From NCBI GenBank assembly GCA_027310185.1, contig DAIDBH010000017.1:1-64000 (forward strand): a stretch of DNA of 64,000 nt, written 5' to 3'. The stretch is from Thermoplasmatales archaeon. GTDB taxonomy: Archaea; Thermoplasmatota; Thermoplasmata; Thermoplasmatales; Thermoplasmataceae. The translations under genes and the position numbers were made by a program. Shown here one piece after another: positions 25,748 through 45,988 of the stretch (position 1 is its first letter; each line of letters begins with the position of its first letter). The notes beneath the pieces were generated by a model, which was not told the origin of the DNA, searched no databases, and saw only the letters and a list, made by a program, of their open reading frames with translations.

Positions 25748-26382
25748 TTATTTTCTTTTTGAATTTAGCTTCATAAAGCTCTTTATTTCAGAAAGCCTTT
25801 CTTTATAATAGGATGAAATATCTTTTAACTGATTGATTGAATCCGGATAAATATCGCTTCCTATCCAGTATTCGAGTATAGTTTGAACTATTTCAGGTTT
25901 ATTTCTTTGAAATGATATTTTTCTTAGTTTTTCTAACATATCAATATCCACTTCAATTATTTGAATTGCCTTTCTGGTTTCTGTTATGGGGACAGTGCGA
26001 AATCTGATCCATTTAACAATATTATTTATTAGTGTTTGAATTGAATCATTTTCAAGATTTGTAATTCTTGCAACCTTTATAGTAAACCTTACAGAACTTA
26101 ATGACTTTATGAATAAATGGTTGTTTTCTAAAAGATATTCTTCAATCGAAGCTAATGCTGTGCGTTTGTTGCCATCTATGAATGGATGAAGCCGTATTAT
26201 CCCTTCAAATAAATAAGCACTCTTCTCGAAGATGGTAGGATATATCTCCTTGTTGTTATACTGCCTTTCCATACCTACACATATAGATTTTAAGGAATCC
26301 CTATCCTTGTAACCCCTTTTATGCCAAATCTATTTATGAGATATTCGTGGATTTTATCGATCTGTGACGCATTAAAGCTCAT
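25748..26382 (-). pseudogene. doc: Doc/Fic-family toxin with N-terminal frameshift
   Basis: HPFIDGNKRTA Fic motif and YPTIFEKSAYL. Upstream ATG 26382 gives MSFNASQIDKIHEYLINRFGIK, one base out of frame at AAAAGGGG with GYKDRDSLKSI... Confidence 0.8.
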
Positions 26383-29659: not shown

Positions 29660-30455
29660 ACTTTAGTATTTCCTTTGATACCAGCTCATCAACAAACTTG
29701 TCCATTTCGTCAACTCCGAACTTCTTTCCCTCCCTCTTCTTCTCATTTATCGTTCTCATTGACTTGACAATTGTTGGTGATCCTTTCAGGCCTACCCATT
29801 CAGGCTTTAGGTTTATATCAGCCAGTGTCCATGTCTCTATGCCTTTCTTAAGGGCATCAATCTTCATCCTCAGTGTTGCTTCCCTGGGTATGTTTGCATT
29901 CGTAAGCACTGTTATAAGGCATGGAGGCTCCATCTTCACGGTTTCAACCCCATCCTCCAGCTGCCTCTCAGCAAAAACTGAGCCGTCATCAACCCATGAG
30001 TTTGATGTGTACGATGCCTGCTCAATTCCGAGAAATTCAGCCACACCGGGTCCCACGTGACCGGTTGATGAATCTGTTGATTCCTCACCTGCATATATGA
30101 TGTCAAACTTGCCGATCTTTGTGATTGTTGCTGCCAGTGTCAGGCCAGTAGGATAGGTATCTGCTCCTGCGAATGCCCTGTCAGTGACAAGTATTGCCCT
30201 GTCAACCCCTCTTGCCATGCAGTCCAGAAGTGCGGTTTCTGCAAAGGGTGGACCCATTGTTATAACCGTAATATGGGTATCAGGATTCTTGTCCTTTATA
30301 AGGAGAGCCTGCTCCACTGCATTCTCGTCTGCGGGATTTATGACATTCCTGGCTGCACCCCTGTTAAGAGTGAATGTGACAGGATCTATCACGACCTCTG
30401 AACTGTCCGGTACCTGTTTTATCATAACTATTATTTCCAGTCCCATTTCCATCAT
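29646..30455 (-). CDS. fixA: Electron transfer flavoprotein beta subunit
   Basis: IKQVPD, NPADENAVE, TMGPP, DRAFAGADTYPT, GLKGSPT. Confidence 0.94.
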   Translation of the reverse strand: MMEMGLEIIVMIKQVPDSSEVVIDPVTFTLNRGAARNVINPADENAVEQALLIKDKNPDTHITVITMGPPFAETALLDCMARGVDRAILVTDRAFAGADTYPTGLTLAATITKIGKFDIIYAGEESTDSSTGHVGPGVAEFLGIEQASYTSNSWVDDGSVFAERQLEDGVETVKMEPPCLITVLTNANIPREATLRMKIDALKKGIETWTLADINLKPEWVGLKGSPTIVKSMRTINEKKREGKKFGVDEMDKFVDELVSKEILKFGGE

Positions 30456-30727
30456 CCGTATTTGTATTTTACTCCGTGGCCGCCCTTTGTATTTGTCCAG
30501 AGAACACTGCCATGAGAGCAGGCAATATCACATGTTCCGCATTCCACACAGTCCTCGTACTTGAAATTCAACTGTCCATCTATGAGTGTGTAGCATTTTG
30601 CGGGGCATGCAAATGTGCAGAAATGATCCGGGCACACTGCACAGATGTCGTGGTTCACCGTTATATGCTCATAGGACTTGTCTATCTTGTAGTTCAACAA
30701 CGATAATCTGTCTTCTATTTTTGTCAT
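30452..30727 (-). CDS. fixX: FixX-like ferredoxin
   Basis: CPAKCY, CVECGTCDIAC, GVKYKYG. Confidence 0.93.
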   Translation of the reverse strand: MTKIEDRLSLLNYKIDKSYEHITVNHDICAVCPDHFCTFACPAKCYTLIDGQLNFKYEDCVECGTCDIACSHGSVLWTNTKGGHGVKYKYG

Positions 30728-30728
30728 T

Positions 30729-32015
30729 TTACAACCTCTTCATCATTCTATAAACATCCACAATCATGTCCTTTCTCTTCTGCTTGTTCTTAAGGGCAGA
30801 TTCCATGACTATCCTGGAAAGATGCTTCTTTGGCTCCCCATTCTCTGAGAATATATTCAGCATTATCTCTTCCGCCATTGCCGGTACCGTGTTGTGAATA
30901 CTTTCGCTCCATGTGACCCTATCTGACCCTTTGAATGTTTCCATGTCCTTCAATACAAATGTTTTCTTCAATGAATCCCTGTATAATTCGTATCTGTCCG
31001 CAGAAGTACTTCCCTTGGTTGCAATATATGCGTCTGCTGCCATTATACCAGATACTATGGCATAGTTCATTCCCTGAAGTACAAGACCGTTGCTGAATGT
31101 AAATCCTGCCGCATCTCCAGCTATCATGTATCCATCTCCATATATCTGGTCAACTGACTGGCCTGCCTCAGGCACAAGATGGGCGCTGTATTCCTCAACT
31201 CTACCATCTGCAAGGAGTGGTGCTATGAACGGATGCTCCTTGAACTGTTCTATAATATTAAATGAATATGTCTGGTTGTTCTTCCTCAAATCTTCCATGG
31301 AAATTACAGCGCCAATTGATATGGATTCCTTGTTTGTATAAAGGAATCCACCTGCCTTCACTCCACCTTCCAGGAAGCCCAGGACATACTCAGATGCATA
31401 TCCCCTCTTTGCACTTGTGAGGTTGAATCTTTCAGTGATGGTCTTTTCTGGTAATTTTATAACTTCCTTCACGCCGATGGCCATGTGCCTGTCGTCAGGT
31501 TTTTTCTTAATACCTGAATCTATGGCTACTCTTGAATTTGCTCCTTCTGCAAGAATCACGGTGTCTGCTGTAACAGTTTCACCGTTCTGCATAACGCCTG
31601 TTACCTTCTTGCCTTCCATTGCCAGCTTGTCCACAGTAACGCCAGATACTACCATTGCACCTGCATCCTTTGCCTTCTTTGCAAGCCATGCATCAAACTT
31701 GGTTCTCAGTACAGTATAACCACTCTTCACTTCCCCGAATCTTGTTGACCTGAAATCCAGGGCAATCTTTGAATCCTTTGTGAGAAATGTAACGCCCTTT
31801 GCCTCAACGTATCTTTCAAGCATATTGCTCTTTTCCCAGTCCGGAATGACCTGGCCGAGGGAATCTCCCCAGAGAACCCCACCAGACACATTCTTGCTTC
31901 CTGGGGGGTCTGCCCTATCTATAAGTAAAACGTTGGCCTTAGCAGAAGCTAACCTTATGGCTGCTGCAGAACCGGCTGGTCCGGCACCAACTACAATGAC
32001 ATCAAACTCACTCAT
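30729..32015 (-). CDS. fixC: FixC-like FAD-dependent ETF:quinone oxidoreductase
   Basis: GAGPAG, PGSKNVSGG, LRTKFDAWLA, EYSAHLVPE, GDAAG. Confidence 0.93.
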   Translation of the reverse strand: MSEFDVIVVGAGPAGSAAAIRLASAKANVLLIDRADPPGSKNVSGGVLWGDSLGQVIPDWEKSNMLERYVEAKGVTFLTKDSKIALDFRSTRFGEVKSGYTVLRTKFDAWLAKKAKDAGAMVVSGVTVDKLAMEGKKVTGVMQNGETVTADTVILAEGANSRVAIDSGIKKKPDDRHMAIGVKEVIKLPEKTITERFNLTSAKRGYASEYVLGFLEGGVKAGGFLYTNKESISIGAVISMEDLRKNNQTYSFNIIEQFKEHPFIAPLLADGRVEEYSAHLVPEAGQSVDQIYGDGYMIAGDAAGFTFSNGLVLQGMNYAIVSGIMAADAYIATKGSTSADRYELYRDSLKKTFVLKDMETFKGSDRVTWSESIHNTVPAMAEEIMLNIFSENGEPKKHLSRIVMESALKNKQKRKDMIVDVYRMMKRL

Positions 32016-32400
32016 TAAACCTACCTGTTATGTGTTAATTACTCCTGACGTAATAACTGTTTTCCAAATATTTAAATCATTTCGTATAGATTGATTACCG
32101 GATATTGGATTTCTTCCCTTTATGGTTATGTTTCATATTTAAACACCACAGTAGTTTTATTTTCCTGGATAGAGTCTTTATATGATACTTTTTGAAATAC
32201 TCTCCATCATAAAGGATTGCACATTTTCAGTTTTAGCAAATCAATCATGGAAATCAATGTACATATTAAATCTCGCCTGGGTTCAGTGTTTAGACACTGA
32301 TAAAGTTAATTCCCGGTGATAACAGAACTTCAAATATATTTTCCAGCATGAAATGAGGAATTAATTACTGCCCCACAGATCTCCGGCTGGATGGCAATCA

Positions 32401-32868
32401 CTACCTTGATGAATGCTCCAGTTTTGCCCCACTCCCCAATCTTTCCTTACAGTAAGCATACAGGGCATCATATAGTGGAAATTGTAGCTTCATGTTCTCA
32501 AAATCATCCTTGGCAATGGCTCTGAAACCAAGAGCGGCCGCCTCCAATCCTGCTGATTCGACCGGTGCGTCAGGTATGGATGCATCTGCCCCTCTCACTA
32601 TATGTGCAAGTTCTGATAAGGCCTGGTCCCTGATCTCATATTTCCTGATTATTGCATCAAAACTGACGTACTCCATTCCATTTTCCCTGTAATGCATCAG
32701 TTCAACACCCGGAAAGTCAAATGGAGTTGCGTTCTCTCTCTTTGCAGTTTCCATGACTTTATCCTTTGGAACGAATAAAAATACTGCTTCCCTATCTACA
32801 AATCTGGAGATCAACCATGGACATGCAATCCTGTCGACTTTTGCGTTTTCTCTTGTTACCCATTTCAT
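32401..32868 (-). CDS. Chromate resistance protein ChrB C-terminal-domain protein
   Basis: MKWVTRENAKVDRIACPWLISRFVD...SFDAII...IVRGAD...LYDALY; start moved to 32868. Confidence 0.88.
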   Translation of the reverse strand: MKWVTRENAKVDRIACPWLISRFVDREAVFLFVPKDKVMETAKRENATPFDFPGVELMHYRENGMEYVSFDAIIRKYEIRDQALSELAHIVRGADASIPDAPVESAGLEAAALGFRAIAKDDFENMKLQFPLYDALYAYCKERLGSGAKLEHSSR

Positions 32869-33024
32869 ATGAAACGTTTCTTCCATCCCCGTGAGGTATA
32901 TAAATATCTTTATGGGTGACCGGCTGGACCTAAACAACTTCTTGTTTCATAGCTGCCACAAATTCAGGATATGAAGAAATCTGGTTCCTGTGAAAAGATG
33001 AGTTAATTCTAAATAATCTGAGAT

Positions 33025-34182
33025 TTATTGCTTCCTGTACAGTGAATCCCTGTTTAGTTCTTTCAGGTTTTTAAATCCAGATAATCCCATCTCAAGATCC
33101 ATTTCTGCCAGTACCTGCTCGAGATATAATTCTATGCCTTCCTGGCCTGCAACTGACAGCGCATATGCATAGGGTCTTCCAATCAGTATCCCACCTGCGC
33201 CAAGAGCCATTGCCTTCATTGCATTTGCTGCGTGCCTGAATCCACTGTCAAACAGGATTTCCCCCTTAAGGTCATCCCTCCCTGAAATCGCTTCAAGTGC
33301 GTCCAGTGACGAGATGGCACCATCTACCTGCCTGCCACCGTGATTTGAAATAACCACTGCTTTTGCACCGGAGTTAAATGCCATTTGAACATCATCCTCG
33401 TGAGTTATGCCCTTCAGGATTACAGGTAATTCTGTAGATCTGCATATTTCCCTGAAATCTTCCCATGAAAATGATGGATTTACATACACGGAGATGAATT
33501 CCATTATGGCCTTTATCAGATCCTCTTCAGGTGGTTTTTCCAGTCTCTTGAGGAAAGCTGGATCCGAGAAGAAATTTGCCAGTCCCTCACCTCTTAGAAA
33601 TGGCAGGTATGCGTTATTCAGGTCCCTTTCTCTCCAGCCTAGCATTGTTGTGTCAGCAGTGACAACAATTGCCCTATAGCCTGATTTCTCAGCTCTCCTT
33701 ATGAAACTCCTGACTATGTTTTTGTCCTTTGATGGATAGAGCTGAAGCCACTTCTCGCCATCTGGAGATTTTTTCGCGATTTCTTCCATCGTGATTGATG
33801 ATACAGTGCTGAGGTTAAACGGCATGTTCATTTTTGCCGCAGCTCTTGCACTTGCAATCTCGCCATCCTTATGCAGTATGGATTGCACTCCTATGGGAGC
33901 AAGTATGAATGGTGATTCATGATTTATGCCAAGGAATTCTGCATCCAGTGATCTCGTGGAAACATCCCTCAGGTATCTTGGCCTTATGCGCCATTTCCTG
34001 AATGCCGACCTGTTTTCCTGCACAGTATCTTCCTCTCCTGCGCCTCCCTCAAGATAATCCCATGCATCCTTTGTGAGAGTATTTTTCGCTCTTTCCCTCC
34101 ATTCATCAACTGACTGTGGCAGCTTCCTGTTTTCTGCACCTGTGAATACCCTTGTCTGGTATTTTGTTCCCTGATCTGTCAT
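33025..34182 (-). CDS. FMN-dependent alpha-hydroxy acid oxidase (lactate 2-monooxygenase-like)
   Basis: LAPIGVQ, WLQLY, DTTMLGWRERDL, LKGI, SNHGGRQVDG. Confidence 0.92.
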   Translation of the reverse strand: MTDQGTKYQTRVFTGAENRKLPQSVDEWRERAKNTLTKDAWDYLEGGAGEEDTVQENRSAFRKWRIRPRYLRDVSTRSLDAEFLGINHESPFILAPIGVQSILHKDGEIASARAAAKMNMPFNLSTVSSITMEEIAKKSPDGEKWLQLYPSKDKNIVRSFIRRAEKSGYRAIVVTADTTMLGWRERDLNNAYLPFLRGEGLANFFSDPAFLKRLEKPPEEDLIKAIMEFISVYVNPSFSWEDFREICRSTELPVILKGITHEDDVQMAFNSGAKAVVISNHGGRQVDGAISSLDALEAISGRDDLKGEILFDSGFRHAANAMKAMALGAGGILIGRPYAYALSVAGQEGIELYLEQVLAEMDLEMGLSGFKNLKELNRDSLYRKQ

Positions 34183-34267: not shown

Positions 34268-35287
34268 TCAGTGCATAAGAAGGTATTTTTCTCTTTCCTC
34301 CTCTGTAATCCTGCTGATCTGTTTCTCCAATGATTTTACCTCACTGGCAGGATCAAAATTCATTTCCCTGTTTTCCTCCTTGAGTGTGAGGTATATGGAT
34401 CCGATTACTGCGTGATACCCATAAAGCGGGTCGGTTGGAATCATTTCCGGATATTGTTCCAGCACATCGCTCCTGACCTTTTTCCAGTAGAGGTTTGATG
34501 CCCTGAATAATCCACCGTAACCGCTGAAATGTACTTCCTCATCGCCAAACATTGTTTTCCTCAGTGATATTATGCACTTTGCTGCCTCTGTGGCTGATTC
34601 TTCCAAGAGTTCAGTTGCAAGTTCATCCCCTTTTTCAGCCAGTTTAGCTACAATGCCTGTAAATGATGCTATCCTGCCTATGTCTGGTGGATTTGTGTAC
34701 ACCTGGTTCACAATTTCCTTCAGATCATCTACATGAAAAAACTCCTTCACAGAATCCGGGATTTTACTCCTGATCACAGATCGACCATCATAAATCTTCA
34801 TTGTTTCCTGTAATGCTCTTCTGGCTGTGTAAAATGCTCCACCTTCATCACCCAGTATCCAGCCCCATCCACTTACTCTCCGGAATGCTGTTCCCTTCCT
34901 TCCATAGGAAACCATTCCTGTACCAGGGCATATCACAATGCCATCCTTTCCTGGAAATCTGCAATCAAATCCAGCCTCTCCATCATTGAGCACCCTTACC
35001 ATTGATATCTTTTCATGATCAACGACCCTGCCTATAAGTTCATTTTTCAGATTAGAGTCTTTCACACCCGCCAGTGCAATTGAAAATTTTGCTATATTAT
35101 TTATAACTATATCTGCCCGTCCTACGGCCCTTGAGATCGCTTCCTTTATGTTTTTTCCTGCTTCTTCAATTCCCCTTGTCCTGTAATTGCTTGGACCGGA
35201 AATACCCATCCCGTGAATGGAGCCATCTTCTGAGTAGCAAACCGCCACGGTCTTCGTCGCACCACCATCCACGGAAACAAACATCAT
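34268..35287 (-). CDS. BadF-family N-acetylmuramate/N-acetylglucosamine kinase (MurK-like)
   Basis: VDGGATKT, GPSNY, LND, PGTG, SGWGWILGDEGGA; context with murQ/nagA. Confidence 0.85.
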   Translation of the reverse strand: MMFVSVDGGATKTVAVCYSEDGSIHGMGISGPSNYRTRGIEEAGKNIKEAISRAVGRADIVINNIAKFSIALAGVKDSNLKNELIGRVVDHEKISMVRVLNDGEAGFDCRFPGKDGIVICPGTGMVSYGRKGTAFRRVSGWGWILGDEGGAFYTARRALQETMKIYDGRSVIRSKIPDSVKEFFHVDDLKEIVNQVYTNPPDIGRIASFTGIVAKLAEKGDELATELLEESATEAAKCIISLRKTMFGDEEVHFSGYGGLFRASNLYWKKVRSDVLEQYPEMIPTDPLYGYHAVIGSIYLTLKEENREMNFDPASEVKSLEKQISRITEEEREKYLLMH

Positions 35288-35317
35288 TATTACTGGTAAT
35301 ATTCAGGAATACATAAA

Positions 35318-36427
35318 TCAATCTGAATTGTTGAGAACAGAGAATACAAAGTTGTGGAATCTTCTCCTGAATTTCAGTATCCTGATATTTTCCCTTGTTG
35401 GGTATACCCTGTTGCTCAGCACTATTGCATAGGCACCTGTCTTTGGATCTATGCAGATGGATGTCCCGGTAAACCCTGTGTGGCCAAATGCACCATAGTT
35501 GACTGTTTCACCCATGAATGCGTTGTACCCGAATGACGGTCCTGGAACTGGTGGCCTTGGTACCTTGATCATCCACCCAAGGCCGAACATTCCTCCTACA
35601 TTCTGGTTCTGTGGCGTTACCATCATGCTCAATGTTTCCTTCCTGACAATTTTTCCACTTAACAGTGCTTCAGTAAAAATGCCCATGTCATGGGTGTTGC
35701 TGAACAACCCAGCATGCCCACATACGCCGCCGTAAAAATACGACTTCTCATCATGTACCTTTCCCCATACCGGCATTCCTCTTTCTGGATCCTCTTCAGT
35801 TGGTGCAATTTTTTCCTTTGCCACAGATGGATTAAAGAAAGAGCTATTCATTGACAGGGGTGAGAATAACTTCTCCTTTGCCAGAACATCCAGGGGTTTT
35901 CCAGATATCTCCTCAAGAAGGAAGGCGAGAAGTATGAAATTGAGATCACTGTATTCTTCTGTTGCAGGAAGCGTATCATGCTGGTGCATCAATCCAATTG
36001 TTCGCAGGTAATCTTCCTTTGTCTTTCCATATTTGTAAAGGGGGAATGTTGAGATCAATCCAGAAGTGTGTGTGATCAGCTGCCTGACTGTCAGGTTGGA
36101 TATGATCAGATCCTGGTTGTAAAGACCAAGAGAACCAAGGCTGTCCTCCAGGCTAAGCTCTCCCCTTTCAATATATTTCATTACCAGGCTTGCTGTTACC
36201 ACTGGCTTTGTTAGAGATGCCATGTCATAAATGGTATCCTCACTGTATTTGAAGTTAAGTTCTTTTATCTTTCCCTTGAAATATGACGTTTTATATGACC
36301 CCTTTCCTACCAGAACATTCATTCCTGAGGATACGCCTTCGAGATTTTTATCGACGAATTCCTTTAATTCTTCCGTGAAATTATCCATGTTCTTCCCCTT
36401 CATTCGATTTGCCCCCATATTCACCAT
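35318..36427 (-). CDS. Beta-lactamase-fold serine hydrolase, AmiE-like MurNAc-L-Ala amidase candidate
   Basis: DMASLTK (SxxK), LITHTSG, YSDLNF, GKVHDE, GHAGLFS, GHTGFTGTS, LSNRVYP. Confidence 0.8.
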   Translation of the reverse strand: MVNMGANRMKGKNMDNFTEELKEFVDKNLEGVSSGMNVLVGKGSYKTSYFKGKIKELNFKYSEDTIYDMASLTKPVVTASLVMKYIERGELSLEDSLGSLGLYNQDLIISNLTVRQLITHTSGLISTFPLYKYGKTKEDYLRTIGLMHQHDTLPATEEYSDLNFILLAFLLEEISGKPLDVLAKEKLFSPLSMNSSFFNPSVAKEKIAPTEEDPERGMPVWGKVHDEKSYFYGGVCGHAGLFSNTHDMGIFTEALLSGKIVRKETLSMMVTPQNQNVGGMFGLGWMIKVPRPPVPGPSFGYNAFMGETVNYGAFGHTGFTGTSICIDPKTGAYAIVLSNRVYPTRENIRILKFRRRFHNFVFSVLNNSD

Positions 36428-37407
36428 CTCACAACCTTGCTCAGGTTTGATGGATGATCAGGATCCATGCCCATGTTTACGGCCTTGAAATTTGCAAGAA
36501 GCTGGATGTATACAAGCGAGTTGAAGACCTTTTGAAACGGGTTTGTTTCATTGATCTTCAGGACTGCATCCCCATTCCCAATGGTTATGACCTCCCCTGA
36601 TAACGCCTTCAATTTTTCCATTATTTTCCTGTTGGGAAAACTACCCTCAGTCAACCAGATTACAGTTGTATCCCCATCCAGCCTGTGCACCGGGCCGTGA
36701 AAATATTCCCGCGTTGGATATGACTCTGTGACAACGCCAGATGTTTCCTTGAACTTAAGACCGCCTTCAAGAGCAACAGGGTAGCACTTTTCTGAACCGA
36801 GAAAAACAACCTTATTCCTGATTTTTGTAGATACTGAACCTACTTCATCTATAGCTGAAACGATCTTTGCAATGCCATTACATATATCATCCACTTCCTC
36901 ACTTATGTTTTTATCATTCCTGAGCCTGTAGTCTATGAGCATTGAGACTGCTACCTGGACAGCATGGGACTTGGTTGCTGCAATTGATTTTTCCTTTCCA
37001 GCGTGTGTGAGAATTGAATTATCAGATTCCCTGAAGAGCTGACTTTCCCTCTCATTGGTTATTCCTATCACTGTAAAACCGTATTTCTTTGAAAGCTTTT
37101 GGTTGGAGATTGCATCAGTACTCTCTCCTGACTGGCTAAAGATTATGTTCGTTATATCTCCATGAAGGTTCTTTATGAGGTTTTCGCTGTATTCTGATGA
37201 TGTAATGGCCATGGATCTTATGCCATTCTCAAGTAATGTATAATTTAACATTAGTGCAGCGTTATAGCTTGTTCCACTACCTGTTACAAAGACAAATGAT
37301 GATTTCCTTATCTGATCTATTATGGAATCAATTCTGTCAGCGTTCTCATTGATAGTTTTCCTTATTGCCTCTGGCTCTTCCCGGATCTCTTCATACATGA
37401 CAGTCAT
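36421..37407 (-). CDS. Double-SIS glucosamine-6-phosphate deaminase (GlmD/NagB-II type)
   Basis: MYEEIREEP, GSGTSYNA, SQSGES, ATKS, EGGLKFKE, HGP, DPDHPSNLSKV; GlmS isomerase half without a glutaminase domain; start moved to 37407. Confidence 0.88.
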   Translation of the reverse strand: MTVMYEEIREEPEAIRKTINENADRIDSIIDQIRKSSFVFVTGSGTSYNAALMLNYTLLENGIRSMAITSSEYSENLIKNLHGDITNIIFSQSGESTDAISNQKLSKKYGFTVIGITNERESQLFRESDNSILTHAGKEKSIAATKSHAVQVAVSMLIDYRLRNDKNISEEVDDICNGIAKIVSAIDEVGSVSTKIRNKVVFLGSEKCYPVALEGGLKFKETSGVVTESYPTREYFHGPVHRLDGDTTVIWLTEGSFPNRKIMEKLKALSGEVITIGNGDAVLKINETNPFQKVFNSLVYIQLLANFKAVNMGMDPDHPSNLSKVVRW

Positions 37408-37717
37408 ATGGAGTTGTATTGGTATTAACGCTATAAATCTTCTTTTGCTGCCCTTTTGCATATATATCAATTCATGATTCAATTTCTGGAAGTGGTAAAA
37501 AACGCTCATCACAATTTTGTATGAAAAATTGCTATGGGAACCACTTGGATATAATTTTTTACACAATGCTTCAACAACAATGCTTTAATACGAGCGAAAA
37601 CATGTTCAAAAAATTGTAGCATTATGCTTAGAACTGAAACTAAGAATAATACAAATTTGAAAGTTTGGACACCCAAAATAAACACCTTATATACATAGAT
37701 AAACTCACATTAGTAGA

Positions 37718-38878
37718 GTGATTAATCTGGAGAGCAGTATTCTTCTGAAGAGGATCGTTACACCGAATGGATATGTGGATGACTGCTATCTCAATATAAA
37801 AGATGGTGTTATACACAGCATAACGAGAAAGGGAATATTTGGCAATGAGATTATAGATTATTCAAATCTCACTGCAATTCCAGGATTCATAGATATACAC
37901 ACCCATGGGTATTTTGGAATTGATGCAACCTATTCATCAGAGGATGAGATTCACATGTGGGCCTCCATGCTAGCCAGGAAAGGCATTACCTCCTTTATTC
38001 CCACATGCGTCTCACTTCCACTTGAGACCATGATCAAATTCGTAAATAAGATCAAAACAGCATCACTTCATCAAAAGAAAAATGAGGCGAGAATACTGGG
38101 AATGAGAAGCGAGGGACCGTATATCAGTCTGGAGCAGAAAGGGGCACATAACACACTATACCTGAGGAAACCAGATGTTGAAGAACTGAAAAAAATAGTT
38201 CACGCTGCTGGTGATTCCACGTTTCTGATTGATATGGCTCCAGAGCTTGAAAATTTCATGGAATCAATGGAATATCTGCTGGAGAATGACAAGATTGTAT
38301 CCCTTGGACATTCAAATGCCTCATACGTCCAGGCCAGGAAAGGAATTGAATCTGGCGCGAAACTGATGACACACTTTTTTAATGCAATGTCTCCCCTGAA
38401 ACACAGGGAGGTTGGCATGGTTGGGGCCGGTCTTTTATCAGATTCAGTATATCTGGAACTCATAGGAGATATGCATCATGTGTCAAGGGAGGCAATTGAG
38501 ATTCTACTGAAAACAAGAGATATTGATCACATAGTGGGAATTACAGATTCACTTTCCATAGGAGGTACTACCACAGCAGAAGTTAAACTTGGAGGCCTTG
38601 ATGTCATAAAAAAGGATGGTGTTGCATGGATCAAGGATACAAACACCATCGCAGGAAGCATCCTCACAATGGATGCTGCATTCCGGAATCTTAATGAGAT
38701 TATCCCAGATCTCATGAGCCTGACGAAGATTTTTTCGACTAACCCCTCAAGGGTATTGAGCCTGAAAAACCTGGGATATATAGATGCTGGAATGAATGCA
38801 GACCTGAATTTTATTGATGAACATATGAATGTGAAAGCCACGATGATAGGTGGGTATCTTGCTGGTGATGAGAAATGA
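37718..38878 (+). CDS. nagA: N-acetylglucosamine-6-phosphate deacetylase
   Basis: PGFIDIHTHG, EGPYI...KGAH, GHS, THFFNAM, ITD, IAGS. Confidence 0.96.
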   Translation: MINLESSILLKRIVTPNGYVDDCYLNIKDGVIHSITRKGIFGNEIIDYSNLTAIPGFIDIHTHGYFGIDATYSSEDEIHMWASMLARKGITSFIPTCVSLPLETMIKFVNKIKTASLHQKKNEARILGMRSEGPYISLEQKGAHNTLYLRKPDVEELKKIVHAAGDSTFLIDMAPELENFMESMEYLLENDKIVSLGHSNASYVQARKGIESGAKLMTHFFNAMSPLKHREVGMVGAGLLSDSVYLELIGDMHHVSREAIEILLKTRDIDHIVGITDSLSIGGTTTAEVKLGGLDVIKKDGVAWIKDTNTIAGSILTMDAAFRNLNEIIPDLMSLTKIFSTNPSRVLSLKNLGYIDAGMNADLNFIDEHMNVKATMIGGYLAGDEK

Positions 38879-38921
38879 GAATATTTAAGGGGCAGAACTA
38901 TCTGGTAAGAAGGTATAAGAT

Positions 38922-39743
38922 ATGACGTCATCCACTGAAGACATAAACCCATTTTCTGTAAACATACATGAGTGGGATGAAGAAACAATTAGCTCATTTA
39001 TTCACCTCTCAGATATAGCTGCCTATGAGGCAGTTGGAAAAGCGATGGATGAAATTTCCAAAGCATGCCGGATGATTCTGGAATCCCTTGAAAAAGGTGG
39101 GAGAGTCATTTACCTTGGTGCAGGTACAAGTGGAAGGGTTGCTGCCCAGGATGTTGTTGAACTGCTTCCAACATACGATCTCGGAACAGATTACTTTGAT
39201 TTCATACTGGCTGGAGGTGTCGGATCACTTGTTAAATCTGTTGAGGGCGCAGAGGATGACAGGAACGGATCAGTGAATGAGTTGAAGCAGAGGAGGCTAA
39301 ATTATAAGGACACTGTTGTTGGAATATCAGCATCAGGCACTACCCCATTCGTCCTTGGTGGCATGGACTACGCAAGAACACTGGGATGCAGGACAATTGG
39401 AATAACAAATAATCATGGCAAGAAGATAGAGAAATCATCTGATCTATGCATTGAACTGCTGACAGGCCCGGAAGTTATTCAGGGTTCAACCAGGATGAAG
39501 GCAGGGACTGCTCAGAAGATGGCACTGAATATAATTTCTACCACTGTAGCGGTAAGGCTTGGAAGAACCTACAGGAATACCATGTCCCACATGGGATCAT
39601 GGTACAATGAAAAACTGAAGAAAAGATCGGTTAACATACTTGTTACCCAGTTTTCAATGACTGAATCTGATGCAGAGAAAATGCTTACTGAAAATAATTA
39701 CAACATTAACAGGTGCATAGAAATTCTGAAGAACAGTAGATAA
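38922..39743 (+). CDS. murQ: N-acetylmuramic acid 6-phosphate etherase
   Basis: YLGAGTSGR, EGAEDD, GISASGTTP, GPEVIQGSTRMKAGTAQKM. Confidence 0.96.
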   Translation: MTSSTEDINPFSVNIHEWDEETISSFIHLSDIAAYEAVGKAMDEISKACRMILESLEKGGRVIYLGAGTSGRVAAQDVVELLPTYDLGTDYFDFILAGGVGSLVKSVEGAEDDRNGSVNELKQRRLNYKDTVVGISASGTTPFVLGGMDYARTLGCRTIGITNNHGKKIEKSSDLCIELLTGPEVIQGSTRMKAGTAQKMALNIISTTVAVRLGRTYRNTMSHMGSWYNEKLKKRSVNILVTQFSMTESDAEKMLTENNYNINRCIEILKNSR

Positions 39744-39795
39744 GTGAGAAACTGCTCCAATCAACTTAATATTGCCAGTTATTATGCTCCGGTAG

Positions 39796-40872
39796 ATGAT
39801 AAAATCAGTAAAATTTAAAAAACTGAATCTTGAGATGAAGAAACCTTTCAAGATTGCTTTGGGCTCAACAGATTTTTATGAGGGATTCCTGGTTTCCATT
39901 GAGACAGATGATGGCATAACAGGATACGGTGAGGCTACCACAACACCATTCATTACAGGAGATACCATGGGCTCAATAGAGAGCGAACTTTCATTCTTCT
40001 CAAAGAAGCTGATCGGAGAGGAAGAATCACCTGAGATTGTAAATACAAAGATGAAGGCGTGGATGAGATCATCCAAGGCAAGCAGGAATGCAATTGACTG
40101 TGCACTCTGGGACATCATAGGAAAGAGGGCAAACATGAACCTTGTAAAATTGCTGGGAAATCATAAGAAATCAATCCTGACTTCATACACCGTTGATCTG
40201 GTTGATGCAGAGACTGCGAAATCACAGGCTAAGGAGCTGTTATCACAGGGTCTCAGGGTTTTCAAGATAAAAGTCGGATCCGGGATTGAGGAAGATTTGA
40301 AAAGAGTAAAGGTTGTGAGGGATGTGGTTGGGGAAGATAAGATGATCTACATAGACTTCAACCAGGCATATAACGTTAAAAATGCTGTCAGGATATCAAG
40401 ATTACTGGAACCTTACAATATAGAATTCATGGAACAACCCATTGCTTCCACAGATATTTCTGGATTGCGTTTTATAAGGGATCATTCTGAAATTCCTGTC
40501 TATGCAGACGAGACCATTTTCACGCCACAGGATGTTTCTGAAGTTCTTAGAAGGGAAGCTGTGGATGGAATAAATATCAAGCTGATGAAATCTGGAGGAA
40601 TCTCAGATGCAATGCAGATGGCAAACACTGCAAAATCATTTGGTGTGCCAGTGATGATAGGATGCATGGTTGAAACGAGGATTGCGAACACTTCTGGCCT
40701 CATAGTTGCACTGAGCAACTCTGCAGTTAAATATGCTGATCTTGACGGATACAATAACATAAAGGAGGACCCTGTTACAGAAGGAATTCTGATGAATAAG
40801 GGAGAAGTGAGCTTATCAGCAAATCTACCTGGAACAGGTATAGCTGTGAGGGAGAAATTCCTTAAAGCATGA
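39796..40872 (+). CDS. L-Ala-D/L-Glu dipeptide epimerase (enolase superfamily)
   Basis: KIK, DFNQ, EQP, ADE, NIKLMKSGG, GCMVE and the DLDG motif typical of dipeptide epimerases (YcjG/YkfB). Confidence 0.9.
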   Translation: MIKSVKFKKLNLEMKKPFKIALGSTDFYEGFLVSIETDDGITGYGEATTTPFITGDTMGSIESELSFFSKKLIGEEESPEIVNTKMKAWMRSSKASRNAIDCALWDIIGKRANMNLVKLLGNHKKSILTSYTVDLVDAETAKSQAKELLSQGLRVFKIKVGSGIEEDLKRVKVVRDVVGEDKMIYIDFNQAYNVKNAVRISRLLEPYNIEFMEQPIASTDISGLRFIRDHSEIPVYADETIFTPQDVSEVLRREAVDGINIKLMKSGGISDAMQMANTAKSFGVPVMIGCMVETRIANTSGLIVALSNSAVKYADLDGYNNIKEDPVTEGILMNKGEVSLSANLPGTGIAVREKFLKA

Positions 40873-40880
40873 ACTGAGCG

Positions 40881-42290
40881 TCAACTCATAAATCCAAATG
40901 CCTTCATTATTGCTCCAACTATTACTGAAGGCTTCTTTGAATATGCACTTATATATCCCATATTTTCTGAAATTATTCCAAGATCGCCGTCAAAGCTTGT
41001 GGATATGAATACGCATATGTTTCTTTCTGAAATCTCATTCAGTAACTTCACCCTTGACCTCAGATGCTCGTTCCTCCCTACAAAGATAATCTGTCTTCCT
41101 GCATCTTTCATGTTCTCTAAGAACTCTATGCCATAATGTAATTTCAGATCCAGGTTCAAACTACCAAGATGGGAAGATACAAGATTTGTAGATTTTGTTA
41201 TTTCAGCCACCTGGCTTTCGTCCTTTGAATCCATCAGAACAAGATCAGTTTCCTTCTCGGGATCAAGCATCTTCACTCTTCTTACAATAGGGGAAACAGT
41301 CTCAACGGACTTCAGGAGATATGGGGATGGCCTGTGTGACATTTTCCTGACCGGTTCCATGAATTCAAGGATTCTCTGTTCCTTCTTTTTCAATAATGCA
41401 TTATCTATCTTCTGAATTTCTTCATAGAATTCCATGGAGCCTACAATATCTGCATTCTCCAGTACATCAACCTCATTTTTAATGGAACCCTTGATAATTT
41501 CTGAAACGTCATACCTTCCCTTTATTGCCTTCATGTCCATGGAATCTGAAATTATGAGGTTCTTATAATTGAAATCCTTTCTGAGCAATTTCTGTACTGC
41601 TGATGACAGAGTGGCTGGATAGTTATCATCCAGGGAATTGTAGAGAACATGAGAAAGCATTATGGAACTGACGCCCGCTTCAGCTGCCTTCCTGAATGGA
41701 TATGCATCGTTTATTATGGATTCTATATTCCTCCTATCTTCAGGTAAATCAACGTGGGAATCAACCATTACAGATCCATGACCGGGGAAGTGCTTTGCTG
41801 TTGCCCGAACACCATAGGACTGAATACCCCTGATGAATTCCACGCCATGCTTTGCAATGAGTTCAAGATCAGATCCAAAGGATCTCTCAAGAATTACTGG
41901 ATTGTATCCATTTAGGGTATCCAGAACAGGAGCCAGGTTCCATCTTATTCCCAGGGAGTTTAGCTGGTATCCGGTGAGTCTTCCAACATAATTTGTGAAT
42001 TTAGGATCATCAAGCTTTCCAAGGAACAGGTTGCTCGGGTTGTAATCAATCCATGGAATCCTTACCACGTTTCCCCCTTCCTGATCCACTGCAATGAAAG
42101 GTGCATCAACATTGTTTTCCACAACGTATATGTGGTTTATCTTCTTTATCAGTTCAGCCAGTTCCTTCTCATCCCTGAAATCATTGCTGAACAGCACTAC
42201 AGATAGGGGCAACATCTTCGAGACATACCTCAGGCTTTCTTCCCTCTCTACACCTCTGAGGCCTGTCTGAATGAATAATCCTGATCTCAT
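40881..42290 (-). CDS. nagZ: GH3 beta-N-acetylglucosaminidase
   Basis: VDQEGGNV, APVLD, ERSFG, KHFPGHG..VDSH NagZ signature, SDSMDM. Confidence 0.92.
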   Translation of the reverse strand: MRSGLFIQTGLRGVEREESLRYVSKMLPLSVVLFSNDFRDEKELAELIKKINHIYVVENNVDAPFIAVDQEGGNVVRIPWIDYNPSNLFLGKLDDPKFTNYVGRLTGYQLNSLGIRWNLAPVLDTLNGYNPVILERSFGSDLELIAKHGVEFIRGIQSYGVRATAKHFPGHGSVMVDSHVDLPEDRRNIESIINDAYPFRKAAEAGVSSIMLSHVLYNSLDDNYPATLSSAVQKLLRKDFNYKNLIISDSMDMKAIKGRYDVSEIIKGSIKNEVDVLENADIVGSMEFYEEIQKIDNALLKKKEQRILEFMEPVRKMSHRPSPYLLKSVETVSPIVRRVKMLDPEKETDLVLMDSKDESQVAEITKSTNLVSSHLGSLNLDLKLHYGIEFLENMKDAGRQIIFVGRNEHLRSRVKLLNEISERNICVFISTSFDGDLGIISENMGYISAYSKKPSVIVGAIMKAFGFMS

Positions 42291-42333: not shown

Positions 42334-43977
42334 CTATTTTGATTGATTATCCATGACCTGAATTTCAACAGATGATGGAAACTGATTTCCATGGAAAACG
42401 TTCTGTTCTGCAATTTTATAATTTCCAGTATCATACTGCTTTCCTGTTAGATTCTGGTTCCTGGCATATTTTGGAAAGGCACTGGATGATATTTCAATCC
42501 TCATTCTGTGATCTTCCCTTATTTCATGTAGCATATACCACATGTCAATGTCTATCCTGATGATTTTTCCAGGTTCATATGGGATTTCCTCAAATGGGCC
42601 ATTTCTATACCTCAATCTTGTTATACCGTCCTGAAGCCTCTGGGCATATCCATCAGGATGCACATCCAGAATCTTCATGGTAAAGTCGGTATCCTCACAA
42701 TCTGAGGATACATATATTCTTCCTGTGATTCTTCCGGCAATTATCAATCCACCTTCCATTTTCCCCGAAGTGTAGACCAGGATATCCTTCCTCTTTTCTA
42801 TTTCGGAATAATCATCCGGCCCCCCAATCTGGGCAAATCCCTCACCAGACAGGTATGGAACTGGATTCATTGGATCATATGAGAACTGATCATTTCTCAT
42901 TCCATACGAAGGTATATCCAAACTCAGGCTCCCATCACCCAGTATGCTTGATGCACTTTTTTCTGATGACAGGTACATATTAACGATTTTACAGTTTTTG
43001 AGTGGCCATTCATTGGATTTTATCCACCTGTTAGGTCCCATGGCAAAAACCCTGACTCTATCCTCATCCCTCACATTCCTCTTTTCAAGGATTGTGTTGA
43101 TCCATTCAGATTCTATTTCAACAAGATCTAGCTTAGAGTCCTTTCCAAAATCAATGTGATCATTCTTTATGTCCCTGTTAACTGCATGTCCCCATGGACC
43201 TATTATGAGACTCTGATTATTCCTTGAAAATTCACTTCTGGAATTTTTTCTCATATTCTCATAATTTATGAATGTGCCTATCTGCTCATCATCGTACCAT
43301 CCTGAAATATGCATTACCGGAAGATCAAGGGAATTCATCTTTCCCTGGTAAAATAGAGGTTTCCAGAATTCACTTTCCGGCCTGTTTATGAAATACTGCC
43401 TCCAGAATGGGATATCAACTCCAATTTTTTCAGGCATGGAAATTAATGGTAAATGTCTGTAGACTTCTTCCCAGTCCACGCTGTTGATATTCTGCATTCC
43501 TCTTCCCCTGAGTGAGAACAGCCATGAGAGGTTCATGGGTGAAGTGTAAACTGATGGATTCTCAACAAAGGGATCTGATGGTGGGACAATACTTATCATT
43601 CCCCTAAGATGTTCAGGTTTCCTCAATGCAGTGAGCCACTGGATCCTTCCTGAATAGGATGCTCCCCATGTGATCACGTTCCCGTTGGACCATGATTTGG
43701 TGGCGAATTCTTCAATGAGCCTGGAACCATCTTCTGCCTCTGAAAAATATGGCGTGAATGTTCCATCTGATTCTCCCCTTCCCCTCACGTCATTTGCAAT
43801 GAATACGAAACCCATTTTGTTGAATTCCATTGCTGTGTTTAGCAACTCGTCTGAGTTCTTTCCGTATGGAGTCCTGAAAAGTATTACCGTGTTCCTTCCC
43901 TTTTCTACTGGTAGGTAGATATCTGAGGACAATTCGATTCCGTCCCGCATTTTAGTTCTTTCATCATAAATAATCAT
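42334..43977 (-). CDS. CocE/NonD-family hydrolase (S15 peptidase-like)
   Basis: MRDGIELSSDIYLP, RTPY, DVRGRGESDG, GASYSG, GWYD, GPWGH, SSSAFP. Confidence 0.92.
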   Translation of the reverse strand: MIIYDERTKMRDGIELSSDIYLPVEKGRNTVILFRTPYGKNSDELLNTAMEFNKMGFVFIANDVRGRGESDGTFTPYFSEAEDGSRLIEEFATKSWSNGNVITWGASYSGRIQWLTALRKPEHLRGMISIVPPSDPFVENPSVYTSPMNLSWLFSLRGRGMQNINSVDWEEVYRHLPLISMPEKIGVDIPFWRQYFINRPESEFWKPLFYQGKMNSLDLPVMHISGWYDDEQIGTFINYENMRKNSRSEFSRNNQSLIIGPWGHAVNRDIKNDHIDFGKDSKLDLVEIESEWINTILEKRNVRDEDRVRVFAMGPNRWIKSNEWPLKNCKIVNMYLSSEKSASSILGDGSLSLDIPSYGMRNDQFSYDPMNPVPYLSGEGFAQIGGPDDYSEIEKRKDILVYTSGKMEGGLIIAGRITGRIYVSSDCEDTDFTMKILDVHPDGYAQRLQDGITRLRYRNGPFEEIPYEPGKIIRIDIDMWYMLHEIREDHRMRIEISSSAFPKYARNQNLTGKQYDTGNYKIAEQNVFHGNQFPSSVEIQVMDNQSK

Positions 43978-44027: not shown

Positions 44028-45239
44028 TTAATACAGCATTATTTCTTTTATCTTTTCCCTGTATCTCCTCAAATCTTCCTGATAATTTTCTATAATATCT
44101 ACAGGATTCGCTCCTGATATGGTCCCATTTCTTATTTCCCGGTTTCCTGCAACAGAATCGAAATAGTGATCATGGAATTCTATCTTATCAGGGTGCAATC
44201 CATATATGGATGATATTAGATGGACCACAAATTCAAATGGCCTGAAAATATTCCTGTTGATCACGTTGATCATAAGTCCATTGCACTTCTCACCGGTGTA
44301 CTTGGAAAAATATGGCTTGAATCTTATCTCATTGAGCATGACTCCTGCAGGATTATGTTTCTCAAGATCGGAGATCAGCTTTCCTGCATCAAGCCATGGA
44401 GCTCCTATAATCTCAAATGGCTTTGTTGTTCCCCTTCCCTCCGATATGTTTGTTCCTTCTAGGAGGACACACCCTGGATACACTGTGGCTGTATTCAAAG
44501 TTGGCATATTTGGGGAAGGCATGGTCCATGGGATTCCCAGCTGATCATACCACATATCTCTTTTCCATTCCTTCATTTTAACTACGTTTAGCCTGACCGT
44601 TTCCTTTGCCATATTACGATTGAAGAATGTTGCAATTTCCCCTACTGTTAAGGAGTGTTTTACTGGTACTGGCATAGCACCGATAAAGGATTGAAGATTA
44701 TCCAGAAGCAATGGTCCATCAGGATTGTTTCCACTCAAAGGATTTGGCCTGTCAAGAACAATAAAATCTATGTCAGTGCCGCCCGTTATTTCCATGGCAT
44801 ATACCATGGTAGCAATATATGTATAAATCCTGCATCCCACGTCCTGAAGATCGAATATCAGGGTGTCAAACTGATCAATGATCTCTCTTGAAATCAATTT
44901 TGAGGAGTCCTTGATTGAATCGGTCTCCCTCATTTCCCTGTCAATATCATTAGAACCTGAACTATTTTTAGAATCAGGTTTCCTGTAAAGACTTTCTACC
45001 TGAACCCCAAGTGCAGAATCATAATATGATTCGACAGTCTCTCCAGACTGGTAATCACCAAAATAACCGTGCTCAGGAGTGAGGAGGGTAAGGCTTTTGT
45101 AACCACCAACTTTCTTCACTATCTCAAGGGATGATTTTCCTTCCCGGTTTCTTGCAGAGTTGTTTGTTATCAGGCCAACTCTCTTGCCTTCGATGAATTT
45201 TTCCCTTATGGAACCTATCTGGTCAATTCCCATCAGCAT
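44028..45239 (-). CDS. namZ: Exo-beta-N-acetylmuramidase NamZ (DUF1343, GH171)
   Basis: GLITN, PEHG, FDLQDVGCRIYTY, LDRPNP, PSPNMP, EGTNISEGRGTTKPFE; start moved to 45239; no signal peptide. Confidence 0.93.
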   Translation of the reverse strand: MLMGIDQIGSIREKFIEGKRVGLITNNSARNREGKSSLEIVKKVGGYKSLTLLTPEHGYFGDYQSGETVESYYDSALGVQVESLYRKPDSKNSSGSNDIDREMRETDSIKDSSKLISREIIDQFDTLIFDLQDVGCRIYTYIATMVYAMEITGGTDIDFIVLDRPNPLSGNNPDGPLLLDNLQSFIGAMPVPVKHSLTVGEIATFFNRNMAKETVRLNVVKMKEWKRDMWYDQLGIPWTMPSPNMPTLNTATVYPGCVLLEGTNISEGRGTTKPFEIIGAPWLDAGKLISDLEKHNPAGVMLNEIRFKPYFSKYTGEKCNGLMINVINRNIFRPFEFVVHLISSIYGLHPDKIEFHDHYFDSVAGNREIRNGTISGANPVDIIENYQEDLRRYREKIKEIMLY

Positions 45240-45298
45240 GGCTGCATATTGGTAGGAAGAATTTAAATTATAATGTTTGTTGTTTCCCTCGCAAACAA

Positions 45299-45988
45299 TC
45301 ACAGGCTTTTTGTGACCCGACCTATCTTTTCAAATATTTCATGAAGACTTTTTGAGTATTTACTTCCATCAAAAAGATTATTCACCGACACGCTTGCAGA
45401 ATTTCCATTGGCATGTATCATGTTCCCATCACCAAGGTAGAGACCCACATGACCCTTGAAAAATACAAGGTCTCCCGGTTTTGCGTTGTCAAAGCTGTCA
45501 ATGGTGGTGGTGAAATCCCTCTGTGCCCCAGAATTCCTTGGAATCTGTATACCTGTGAATTTATAAAGCCGTTGAACAAAACCTGAACAGTCATAACCAA
45601 ATTCAGAGGTTCCTCCCCATAGGTATGGTACACCAATAAACTCCTTGGAAAGATCACAAACAGAGAAATTGTTGTCTGAAAACCTGATAAGCTTATTATC
45701 AGGTATACTGTATTTTTCAGCCTCTTCCTTGCTTACATAGGAACCGAATGGTAGTTTTATTTCTGGGTGGCTGTGGAATCTTCTTAACTTGAATGCTTTC
45801 TCAGTGTGTTCAGTTATTATATTTGTCTTCACGTATCCTTTAACATGATCCTGGGTTTGAATTAAAGAATAGGCGTCTCCCCTTTCCAGGAGGTCAAATC
45901 TTTCTCCAAAAACTACCTGTGTTTCTCTTTCAGATTCAAACATTGCCTTACTTCTTAAATCTCCTACACCTATCCGTACCTGATACAT
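45299..45988 (-). CDS. SH3-like + NlpC/P60 gamma-D-glutamyl endopeptidase (YkfC-like)
   Basis: ETQVVFGE, GVPYLWGG...YDCSGFVQ, PRNS, PGDLVFF.GHVG, MIHA. Confidence 0.92.
   Translation of the reverse strand: MYQVRIGVGDLRSKAMFESERETQVVFGERFDLLERGDAYSLIQTQDHVKGYVKTNIITEHTEKAFKLRRFHSHPEIKLPFGSYVSKEEAEKYSIPDNKLIRFSDNNFSVCDLSKEFIGVPYLWGGTSEFGYDCSGFVQRLYKFTGIQIPRNSGAQRDFTTTIDSFDNAKPGDLVFFKGHVGLYLGDGNMIHANGNSASVSVNNLFDGSKYSKSLHEIFEKIGRVTKSL

Follow-up and report, generated by a model that had tools for sequence, protein, structure and literature searches.

We analyzed the first 64 kb (positions 1 to 64,000, hereafter the window) of contig DAIDBH010000017.1 (C1) from the Thermoplasmatales archaeon genome GCA_027310185.1, focusing on a group of seven genes located between positions 34268 and 42290 that includes a sugar kinase, MurQ, NagA and a protein with two SIS domains. 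The genome is 1.88 Mb long and 99.5% complete, and its small-subunit ribosomal RNA has a full-length match to the archaeal model (1499.5 bits). The original prediction described these genes as a route for N-acetylmuramic acid (MurNAc) that is independent of the phosphotransferase system (PTS) and is arranged around a divergent promoter. All seven open reading frames (ORFs) were found where they had been placed (Table 1), the SIS ORF in that description being 36421-37566, and their family matches have E-values from 1e-17 to 1e-92, far past chance. The ORF positions and family matches also bear out the arrangement. The SIS, hydrolase and kinase genes, transcribed in this order from the minus strand, diverge from the plus-strand nagA, murQ and epimerase genes, which in turn converge on a gene of glycoside hydrolase family 3 (GH3). 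The cluster is real, and it is the left end of an island of about 30 kb that reaches to about 63.4 kb and is flanked by TrmB regulators.

Table 1. Coordinates and assignments of the features of the locus and of the remainder of the island (aa, amino acids).
Feature	Position	Strand	Length (aa)	Assignment and score
BadF/BcrAD-family sugar kinase	34268..35287	-	339	candidate MurNAc (and N-acetylglucosamine) 6-kinase; PF01869, 118 bits (cut-off 31.5)
Beta-lactamase-fold serine hydrolase	35318..36427	-	369	candidate MurNAc-L-Ala amidase (AmiE-like) or D-peptidase; PF00144, 155.5 bits
Stand-alone double-SIS protein	36421..37407	-	328	candidate glucosamine-6-phosphate deaminase; C-terminal half of GlmS, 187.6 bits
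Divergent intergenic region	37408..37717			two back-to-back TATA-like boxes
NagA	37718..38878	+	386	N-acetylglucosamine-6-phosphate deacetylase, GTG start; TIGR00221, 282.7 bits (equivalog cut-off 225.65)
MurQ	38922..39743	+	273	MurNAc-6-phosphate etherase; NF003915, 308.2 bits (cut-off 168)
Enolase-superfamily dipeptide epimerase	39796..40872	+	358	L-Ala-D/L-Glu epimerase-like; MR_MLE_C, 172 bits; MR_MLE_N, 59 bits
GH3 beta-N-acetylglucosaminidase	40881..42290	-	469	NagZ-type, no signal peptide; PF00933, 177 bits
S15 CocE/NonD hydrolase	42334-43977	-		upstream of GH3, same strand
NamZ exo-muramidase	44028-45302	-		upstream of GH3
SH3+NlpC/P60 endopeptidase	45299-45988	-		upstream of GH3
Second NamZ	49580-50680	+		
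LD-carboxypeptidase	50731-51702	-		
Family-5 solute-binding protein	51940-55254	-	1104	N- and C-terminal membrane segments
S13 DD-peptidase	55489-56598	+		

The 3' position of the SIS gene agreed with the prediction, but its start did not. The reading of 381 residues from a TTG at 37566 was rejected because all the family and Protein Data Bank (PDB) matches begin at residue 53-56 of that ORF. The SIS orthologues also align from about residue 53-56 onward, and a conserved TATA-like box lies about 24 nucleotides upstream of an ATG at 37407, which is the likely start. With this start the divergent spacer measures 310 bp. The box on the SIS side (ctataaa, 37431-37437, read on the minus strand) is 24 nucleotides upstream of the ATG, and the box on the nagA side (ttatata, 37687-37693) is 25 nucleotides upstream of the GTG of nagA. 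Each of the 4 congeneric loci compared retains both boxes and the GTG, with a spacer of 137 to 487 bp between the boxes. Apart from the boxes, the spacers share just a short ttcaatttc stretch, and comparison of the congeneric loci revealed no conserved operator or palindrome. Since the boxes are conserved and lie about 24-25 nucleotides from the start codons, the divergent promoter that had been postulated takes the form of two back-to-back predicted archaeal-type promoters. The transcripts from both are probably leaderless or near-leaderless.

Candidate enzymes for the conversion of MurNAc to fructose-6-phosphate

The MurQ and NagA proteins have the firmest assignments. MurQ passes the curated NCBIfam model and NagA its equivalog model (Table 1). 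MurQ also matches Haemophilus influenzae MurQ (4lzj/1nri) with 184 bits, and in this alignment, which comprises a single SIS fold, both acidic motifs (..vvEllPT.. and vEGAEDd) match. We take the two acidic positions to be the catalytic glutamates, whose roles and numbering are reported to be given in Hadi 2008. Etherase activity on MurNAc-6-phosphate (MurNAc-6P) would follow from membership in the family. Public pipelines also label some archaeal proteins of this set MurQ, for example P0260, named Picrophilus oshimae.

The double-SIS protein covers only positions 250-604 of the GlmS model: it has two SIS domains and no N-terminal GATase/glutaminase domain. Its S-Q-S-G-E, K..E, H-G-P and C-terminal K positions align with those of Escherichia coli GlmS, and its PDB matches include 1moq (108.8 bits) and 1j5x, a Thermotoga glucosamine-6-phosphate (GlcN-6P) deaminase (100.6 bits). 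The earlier assignment as a GlmD-type deaminase therefore holds for the two SIS domains without glutaminase and fails at the cut-offs of the GlmD and NagB-II models, to which we return below. Classical NagB gave 0 matches in the host genome, which leaves the SIS protein as the only deaminase candidate in the island. A SIS paralogue is encoded elsewhere in the genome (C4:11489-12418).

The kinase scores well above the PF01869 cut-off, and its DGGATKT, ND, GTG and GWGxxxGDEG motifs are aligned with those of the BadF fold. Its best PDB match is the hexokinase of Sulfurisphaera (Sulfolobus) tokodaii (2e2n; 122 bits over residues 1-270), and the next is a MurNAc/N-acetylglucosamine (GlcNAc) kinase, 8zo3 (82 bits over residues 4-282). 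Tannerella forsythia MurK was not among the PDB matches to the kinase at E<=0.001. Thus, of the proposal that the protein is a MurK, membership in the BadF family stood, and orthology to the MurK of Clostridium acetobutylicum or T. forsythia did not. Among 120 kinase relatives listed, all the named ones are archaeal. In a tree of 19 rows the island kinases form one clade (10 of the 19 rows, SH-aLRT 96), separate from the two other BadF paralogues of the host (3923-4984 and C18:68676-69533). Judged from these matches and the tree, the kinase is a member of an archaeal BadF clade nearest to the Sulfolobus hexokinase and not an orthologue of the bacterial MurK.

The clade is marked by its sugar loop, A-G-[VM]-K-D-S, which reads A-G-V-K-D-S in the host. 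The Lys is found in 99 of 107 clade members, with Gly in 6 and Arg in 2, and paralogues and remoter relatives have Gly, Arg or a gap at this position. Counted from the conserved Gly, it corresponds to I69 of T. forsythia MurK. According to PMC10465942, I69 lines the lactyl pocket, and the Asp of the Sulfolobus enzyme at this place was argued to repel MurNAc. The loop Lys could pair with the lactyl carboxylate of MurNAc. The Asn preceding the catalytic Asp was also considered as an indicator of specificity and was uninformative, being common to 8zo3 and all the paralogues.

Genome-wide searches, for which the controls gave the expected matches in model organisms every time, narrowed down the possible routes. 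PTS EIIC and HPr each gave 0 matches in the 99.5%-complete genome, in accordance with the predicted independence from the PTS. AnmK was also missing (0 matches in the host genome), so that a sugar kinase is the only candidate for making MurNAc-6P. No MurB (MurB_C, 0 matches) was found in the genome, and MurNAc must therefore come from outside. Candidate genes exist for all four chemical steps (MurNAc 6-kinase, MurQ etherase, NagA deacetylase and SIS-type GlcN-6P deaminase), they lie around one divergent promoter region, and they co-occur in related genomes as described in the next section. From these findings we infer a route from MurNAc to fructose-6-phosphate (Fru-6P) that uses an ATP-dependent kinase, as had been proposed.

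Distribution, ancestry and environmental occurrence

The phyletic sample consisted of 41 genomes, the host (G000) and 40 relatives. MurQ orthologues (E<=1e-70) were present in eight of them (G000, G006, G011, G012, G015, G016, G017 and G034). The island kinase (E<=1e-70) was detected in the same eight and in none of the 33 MurQ-negative genomes, the remaining matches being paralogues with at most 38% identity. NagA and the beta-lactamase-fold hydrolase (both E<=1e-30) also occurred in these eight, and the island-type SIS protein in these eight plus G018 and G022. The sampled relatives are kin, and this co-occurrence in 8 of 41 is to be read as a pattern and not as a statistic. G012 (a single contig of 1.94 Mb), G011 and G015 share the gene layout of the host unchanged. 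The same genes are reshuffled in G016, G006, G017, G034, G241 and G349, where the kinase adjoins NagA, NamZ or the hydrolase in five cases, G017 being the exception. The closest titled MurQ loci belong to a "Thermoplasmatales archaeon" (84% identity) and a "Thermoplasmata archaeon" (53%).

Counting murQ across archaea had been suggested as a check, and the count was carried out for one phylum, in which MurQ exceeded the cut-off in 10 of 401 sampled genomes and 5 of 162 genera. In a tree of 38 rows, the 10 MurQs of Thermoplasmatales (families f1 and f3) make up a single clade (100/100 support) on a long branch, apart from bacterial MurQ on a limited, non-random bacterial sample. Family f30 MurQ and the MurQ of G181 are placed separately, in among bacterial rows, and 3 changes of the archaeal label are required on this tree. 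The bacterial rows were chosen for their similarity to the query and therefore do not allow a donor to be named. In the f30 genome G060 (L055, C58 9079-12489), a MurQ over the NCBIfam cut-off directly follows a gene for a PTS sorbose-type (mannose-family) IIB protein and faces a gene for a fused mannose-family IIC-IID protein; an archaeal TFB is encoded on the same contig. When 20 kb of this locus were searched by tblastn with 30 window proteins (those of the island, six flanking proteins and the second BadF kinase), MurQ alone was matched. Judged by these neighbors, G060 has a PTS-linked MurQ solution in another archaeal lineage, and on the tree the archaeal MurQs go back to two or more separate origins, of which one is linked to a kinase and one to a PTS. 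Its rarity in the phylum together with these origins indicates that MurQ is an acquired niche adaptation rather than archaeal heritage. The pathway as predicted is a mosaic that combines a MurQ clade apart from bacterial MurQ with a kinase that descends from archaeal sugar kinases of the BadF type.

In the MurQ-negative genome G018 (C1:1559855-1561749) an island-type SIS gene abuts a BadF kinase gene. Such a pair may represent an older archaeal hexosamine module to which the bacterial wall genes were added later. The second BadF kinase of the host (3923-4984) is located beside a TrmB regulator and GH31/ATP-binding cassette (ABC) sugar genes, 30 kb from the island. Its orthologue in G012 (L037, 2293-3321; 68% identity) is inside the island, directly after the epimerase, and is followed by about 7.5 kb of inserted genes.

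The stretch was found, at a level of at least half of the sampled words, in 18 listed runs, mostly metagenomes of mine drainage or mine tailings. Any part of it was contained in 20 runs from 7 studies, and the assembly may stem from three runs. RNA contigs from four libraries, belonging to three studies, lie on all seven genes, with 100% identity in X5 and X18 and 90-99% in X19 and X20. These contigs are consistent with expression and do not prove it, since DNA can occur in such libraries. A gap in the RNA contigs at the spacer (X5 stops at 37399 and resumes at 37726, and X18, from the same sample, is uncovered there too) was considered as a sign of leaderless transcripts and rejected: it comes from a single study, and a relative's contig in X19 enters the spacer with unlike letters. 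RNA depth was not used for ranking the genes.

Peptide-degrading genes of the island and their predicted location

The beta-lactamase-fold hydrolase has PBP4B as its nearest model (114 bits, cut-off 385) and reaches no equivalog cut-off. Its best PDB matches are S12 D-peptidases, and it has the S-L-T-K and H-A-G motifs, with Y-S-D in place of YxN. Amidase_2 and Amidase_3 gave 0 matches in the host genome, which makes this hydrolase the only candidate for freeing MurNAc from the peptide. The candidate epimerase has the MR_MLE domains, and its scores against the L-Ala-D/L-Glu epimerase models NF041118 and NF011708 were 225 bits (cut-off 500) and 127 bits (cut-off 343). Its assignment to the amino-sugar arm was not upheld, since as a dipeptide epimerase it belongs to the peptide arm. 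The GH3 protein scores 161 bits against the NagZ equivalog, below the cut-off of 207, and 148 bits against 6k5j, a solved GH3 beta-N-acetylglucosaminidase. It carries the stretch KHFPGHGSVMVDSH, in agreement with the GH3 N-domain motif K-H-[FI]-P-G-[HL]-G-x4-D-[ST]-H, which we take to be a mark of NagZ and GH3. Its gene closes a minus-strand P60-NamZ-S15-GH3 run, and the S15-NamZ-P60 part is syntenic in G012, G011 and G015. Besides the genes in Table 1, the island holds genes for a DUF218 protein, an ornithine/diaminopimelate (DAP)-type decarboxylase, an amidase, an M20 peptidase and a second MR_MLE protein.

Protein topology was assessed by a Kyte-Doolittle scan of 19 residues and inspection of the N-termini. 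Neither a signal peptide nor a hydrophobic N-terminus was found in the 11 predicted hydrolases and peptidases of the island, and no secreted lytic enzyme was seen in it. Because these 11 proteins have no signal peptides, the arm probably receives its sugars from muropeptides that are digested intracellularly, and entry as imported muropeptides appears more likely than entry as free MurNAc. Among the 23 right-hand island proteins scanned, the family-5 binding protein is the only one with hydrophobic segments. It is about twice the usual length for its family, and no permease or ATPase genes were found near it.

Other genes were observed in the window. Directly downstream of the kinase, on the same strand (28538-34182), are genes for a flavin mononucleotide (FMN)-dependent 2-hydroxyacid (L-lactate-type) dehydrogenase, a ChrB_C protein and FixC-FixX-EtfB-EtfA. 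The dehydrogenase gene stays beside the kinase in G012 and G011 and is missing in G015. This FMN-dependent family is normally L-specific and MurQ releases D-lactate, so a link between the dehydrogenase and MurQ is unproven. Two island ORFs without a Pfam match (57807-58577 and 60280-61131; 256 and 283 residues) have counterparts with 76-79% identity in G012 and G011, located between GNAT, amidase and M20 genes. An IS110-family transposase gene is at the start of the contig (79-1236), a Fic/DOC-domain ORF of 174 residues, in which just the C-terminal part of the domain is matched, is at 25748-26272, and the 64-kb window has no tRNA or Rfam match.

Interpretation and relation to known systems

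We consider it likely that the locus forms the amino-sugar arm, located in the cytoplasm, of an island for consuming peptidoglycan in a murein-less Thermoplasmatales archaeon, and this archaeon probably feeds on bacterial cell-wall debris. Wall fragments would be imported, the large family-5 binding protein being the only island protein predicted to be extracytoplasmic. NagZ, NamZ and the beta-lactamase-fold hydrolase, the latter in a putative AmiE-like role, all without signal peptides, would dismantle the fragments inside the cell. The BadF kinase would then phosphorylate the released MurNAc, and probably also GlcNAc, with ATP. MurQ would remove D-lactate to yield GlcNAc-6-phosphate (GlcNAc-6P), NagA would remove the acetate, and the double-SIS protein would deaminate and isomerize GlcN-6P to Fru-6P. 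The two operons encoding these proteins would start from the back-to-back TATA boxes. More tentatively, and with somewhat more doubt than belief, we propose that the kinases linked to MurQ in Thermoplasmatales evolved independently into a MurNAc kinase family of their own, derived from archaeal hexokinase/GlcNAc-kinase stock and marked by the loop Lys, and that with these kinases acidophilic archaea without a wall would take up bacterial peptidoglycan and burn it completely.

Several observations weigh against this interpretation. The kinase reaches no equivalog cut-off (87 bits against the NagK model, cut-off 370), and a broad-specificity archaeal hexokinase is a nearer match to it than the MurNAc/GlcNAc kinase 8zo3 is. 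The clade Lys aligns with an Asp in 8zo3; since 8zo3 nevertheless accepts MurNAc, this position does not act as a simple switch of specificity. The kinase adjoining SIS-NagA-MurQ in the Picrophilus-like genome G112 comes from another BadF clade and has Gly instead of Lys, and a kinase of the island clade was not found in that genome. Both results speak against a pairing of the Lys with the lactyl carboxylate. MurQ is under the stricter equivalog TIGR00274 (259.1 bits, cut-off 302), and the SIS protein is well below GlmD (NF041128; 112.4 bits, cut-off 580) and NagB-II (NF046059; 120.8 bits, cut-off 430). No ABC permease is encoded between 21 kb and 170 kb of the contig, which leaves the binding protein without an adjacent one. 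Lastly, the kinship of the sampled genomes overstates their independence.

Some of these observations would suit a pathway for GlcNAc or hexosamines only, in which the kinase is a Sulfolobus-type GlcNAc/hexose kinase and the MurQ homologue either acts on another sugar-phosphate ether or has no supply of MurNAc-6P. The hexokinase as best PDB match, the archaeal origin of all the named kinase relatives among the matches listed, the SIS-kinase pair of the MurQ-negative G018 and the kinase without the clade Lys beside the MurQ of G112 all agree with it. It is nonetheless very unlikely in view of the strict association of the island-clade kinase with MurQ (8 of 8 MurQ-positive and 0 of 33 MurQ-negative genomes), the two NamZ exo-muramidases, which would release MurNAc, the MurQ family score with both acidic motifs kept, and the failure to find other MurNAc-6P routes (PTS EIIC, HPr or AnmK) in the genome. 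An explanation that overlaps with the catabolic one is salvage, in which the locus would supply GlcNAc-6P and GlcN-6P for the cell's own glycoconjugates rather than energy, in a family lacking canonical GlmS. The GlcN-6P deaminase reaction is reversible, which also counts against catabolism, and the SIS protein might run toward GlcN-6P. The host genome has no full-length GlmS, and GlmS exceeded the cut-off in 1 of 25 f1 genomes searched and 8 of 41 overall. Most f1 genomes, however, lack both GlmS and the island, and the island is therefore no general fix for missing GlmS. The absence of GlmS, which holds for nearly the whole family, was for this reason rejected as an explanation for the presence of the island. 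The second SIS paralogue elsewhere in the genome also speaks against salvage, and the full set of peptide-degrading and DAP-decarboxylase genes points to bulk catabolism, so that salvage seems unlikely.

The two other explanations concern the supply of the sugars and the provenance of the DNA. Free MurNAc and GlcNAc could be taken up directly by a secondary transporter, as by MurT of T. forsythia, instead of entering as muropeptides. That organism has an established route of transporter, kinase and etherase without a PTS (PMC5790795), the binding protein has no adjacent permease, and a major facilitator superfamily gene is present at 22719-23999. Such uptake would leave unexplained why no signal peptide is present in NagZ, both NamZ proteins, the hydrolase, P60, LdcA or the S13 peptidase and why no lytic enzyme of the island is secreted. 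Cell-wall enzymes without signal peptides imply that their substrates must reach the cytoplasm as oligomers or muropeptides, and we regard direct uptake as quite unlikely. Mis-binning or mis-assembly of bacterial DNA into an archaeal genome has in its favor that most of the families present are typical of bacteria. We give it practically no credence, since the same island is found in the single-contig G012 and 9 other related genomes, is flanked by TrmB regulators, has archaeal-type TATA boxes and a GC content (0.39-0.44) equal to that of the rest of the window, and includes kinase and hydrolase clades that are archaeal.

The proposed catabolic arm resembles several known systems in part. In E. 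coli, cytoplasmic murein recycling depends on AmpG, NagZ, AmpD, LdcA, AnmK/NagK, MurQ and NagA. As here, muropeptides are dismantled in the cytoplasm before the kinase, MurQ and NagA act. Unlike in E. coli, no AnmK, AmpD-type amidase or AmpG was found in the host, NamZ is present, and a foreign wall would serve as food instead of the cell's own wall being recycled. The murQ-murR-murP-amiE-nagZ-namZ operon of Bacillus subtilis, as described in PMC8054146, has the same set of NagZ, AmiE-like, NamZ and MurQ proteins attacking from the non-reducing end. There, NagZ, AmiE and NamZ are secreted and the sugars enter by the PTS. The island enzymes differ in having no signal peptides, which for the hydrolase departs from the secreted AmiE, and the island has no PTS, no MurR and a kinase in place of MurP. 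Archaea are mentioned 0 times in PMC8054146.

The murT-murK-murQ cluster of T. forsythia (PMC5790795; MurK structure, PMC10465942) is also PTS-free, with an ATP-dependent PF01869 kinase that feeds MurQ in an organism unable to make MurNAc. The present system differs in its archaeal host, in a kinase that is no MurK orthologue and in that no MurT-type transporter was seen here. In addition, T. forsythia uses the sugar for wall synthesis, whereas here it would be burnt through NagA and the SIS deaminase, and the substrates would probably be released intracellularly. The MurK of C. acetobutylicum (8zo3; Reith 2011, as reported within PMC5790795) shares the BadF-type fold, with DGGxTKT, N-D, GTG and GWGxxxGDEG aligned, and its dual MurNAc/GlcNAc role would fit the island. 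It is only a distant paralogue, however, and differs from the archaeal clade in the A-G-x-x loop (Asp instead of Lys). The S. tokodaii hexokinase is the closest solved relative of the kinase and is of archaeal origin; it has H-D before the catalytic Asp and an A-G-L-D-S loop, where the island clade has N-D and A-G-V-K-D-S. Stand-alone SIS deaminases (GlmD, NagB-II and Thermotoga 1j5x) share with the island protein the two SIS domains without glutaminase and the aligned GlmS isomerase-site residues. Unlike GlmD and NagB-II themselves, the island protein falls below both cut-offs and scores higher against the C-terminal half of GlmS than against either deaminase model.

In the open-access full-text literature searched, no publication dealt with MurQ or with the catabolism of MurNAc or peptidoglycan in Thermoplasmata. 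MupG-like proteins have been noted in Sulfolobales, and a different function was assumed for them (PMC6262408). What we infer as new is a mosaic route for MurNAc that is wholly cytoplasmic, works without a PTS, has recruited an archaeal kinase clade and belongs to an archaeon lacking murein. Peptidoglycan holds much organic carbon and nitrogen, and bacteria are usually regarded as the organisms that break it down. A complete, conserved and internally consistent MurNAc pathway in murein-less archaea would show that some archaea eat bacterial walls, and it would be a clear case of a pathway made from transferred bacterial parts and a recruited archaeal kinase. If the kinases are indeed such a MurNAc kinase family, bacterial necromass, or live bacteria, would serve these archaea as food in acid mine communities.

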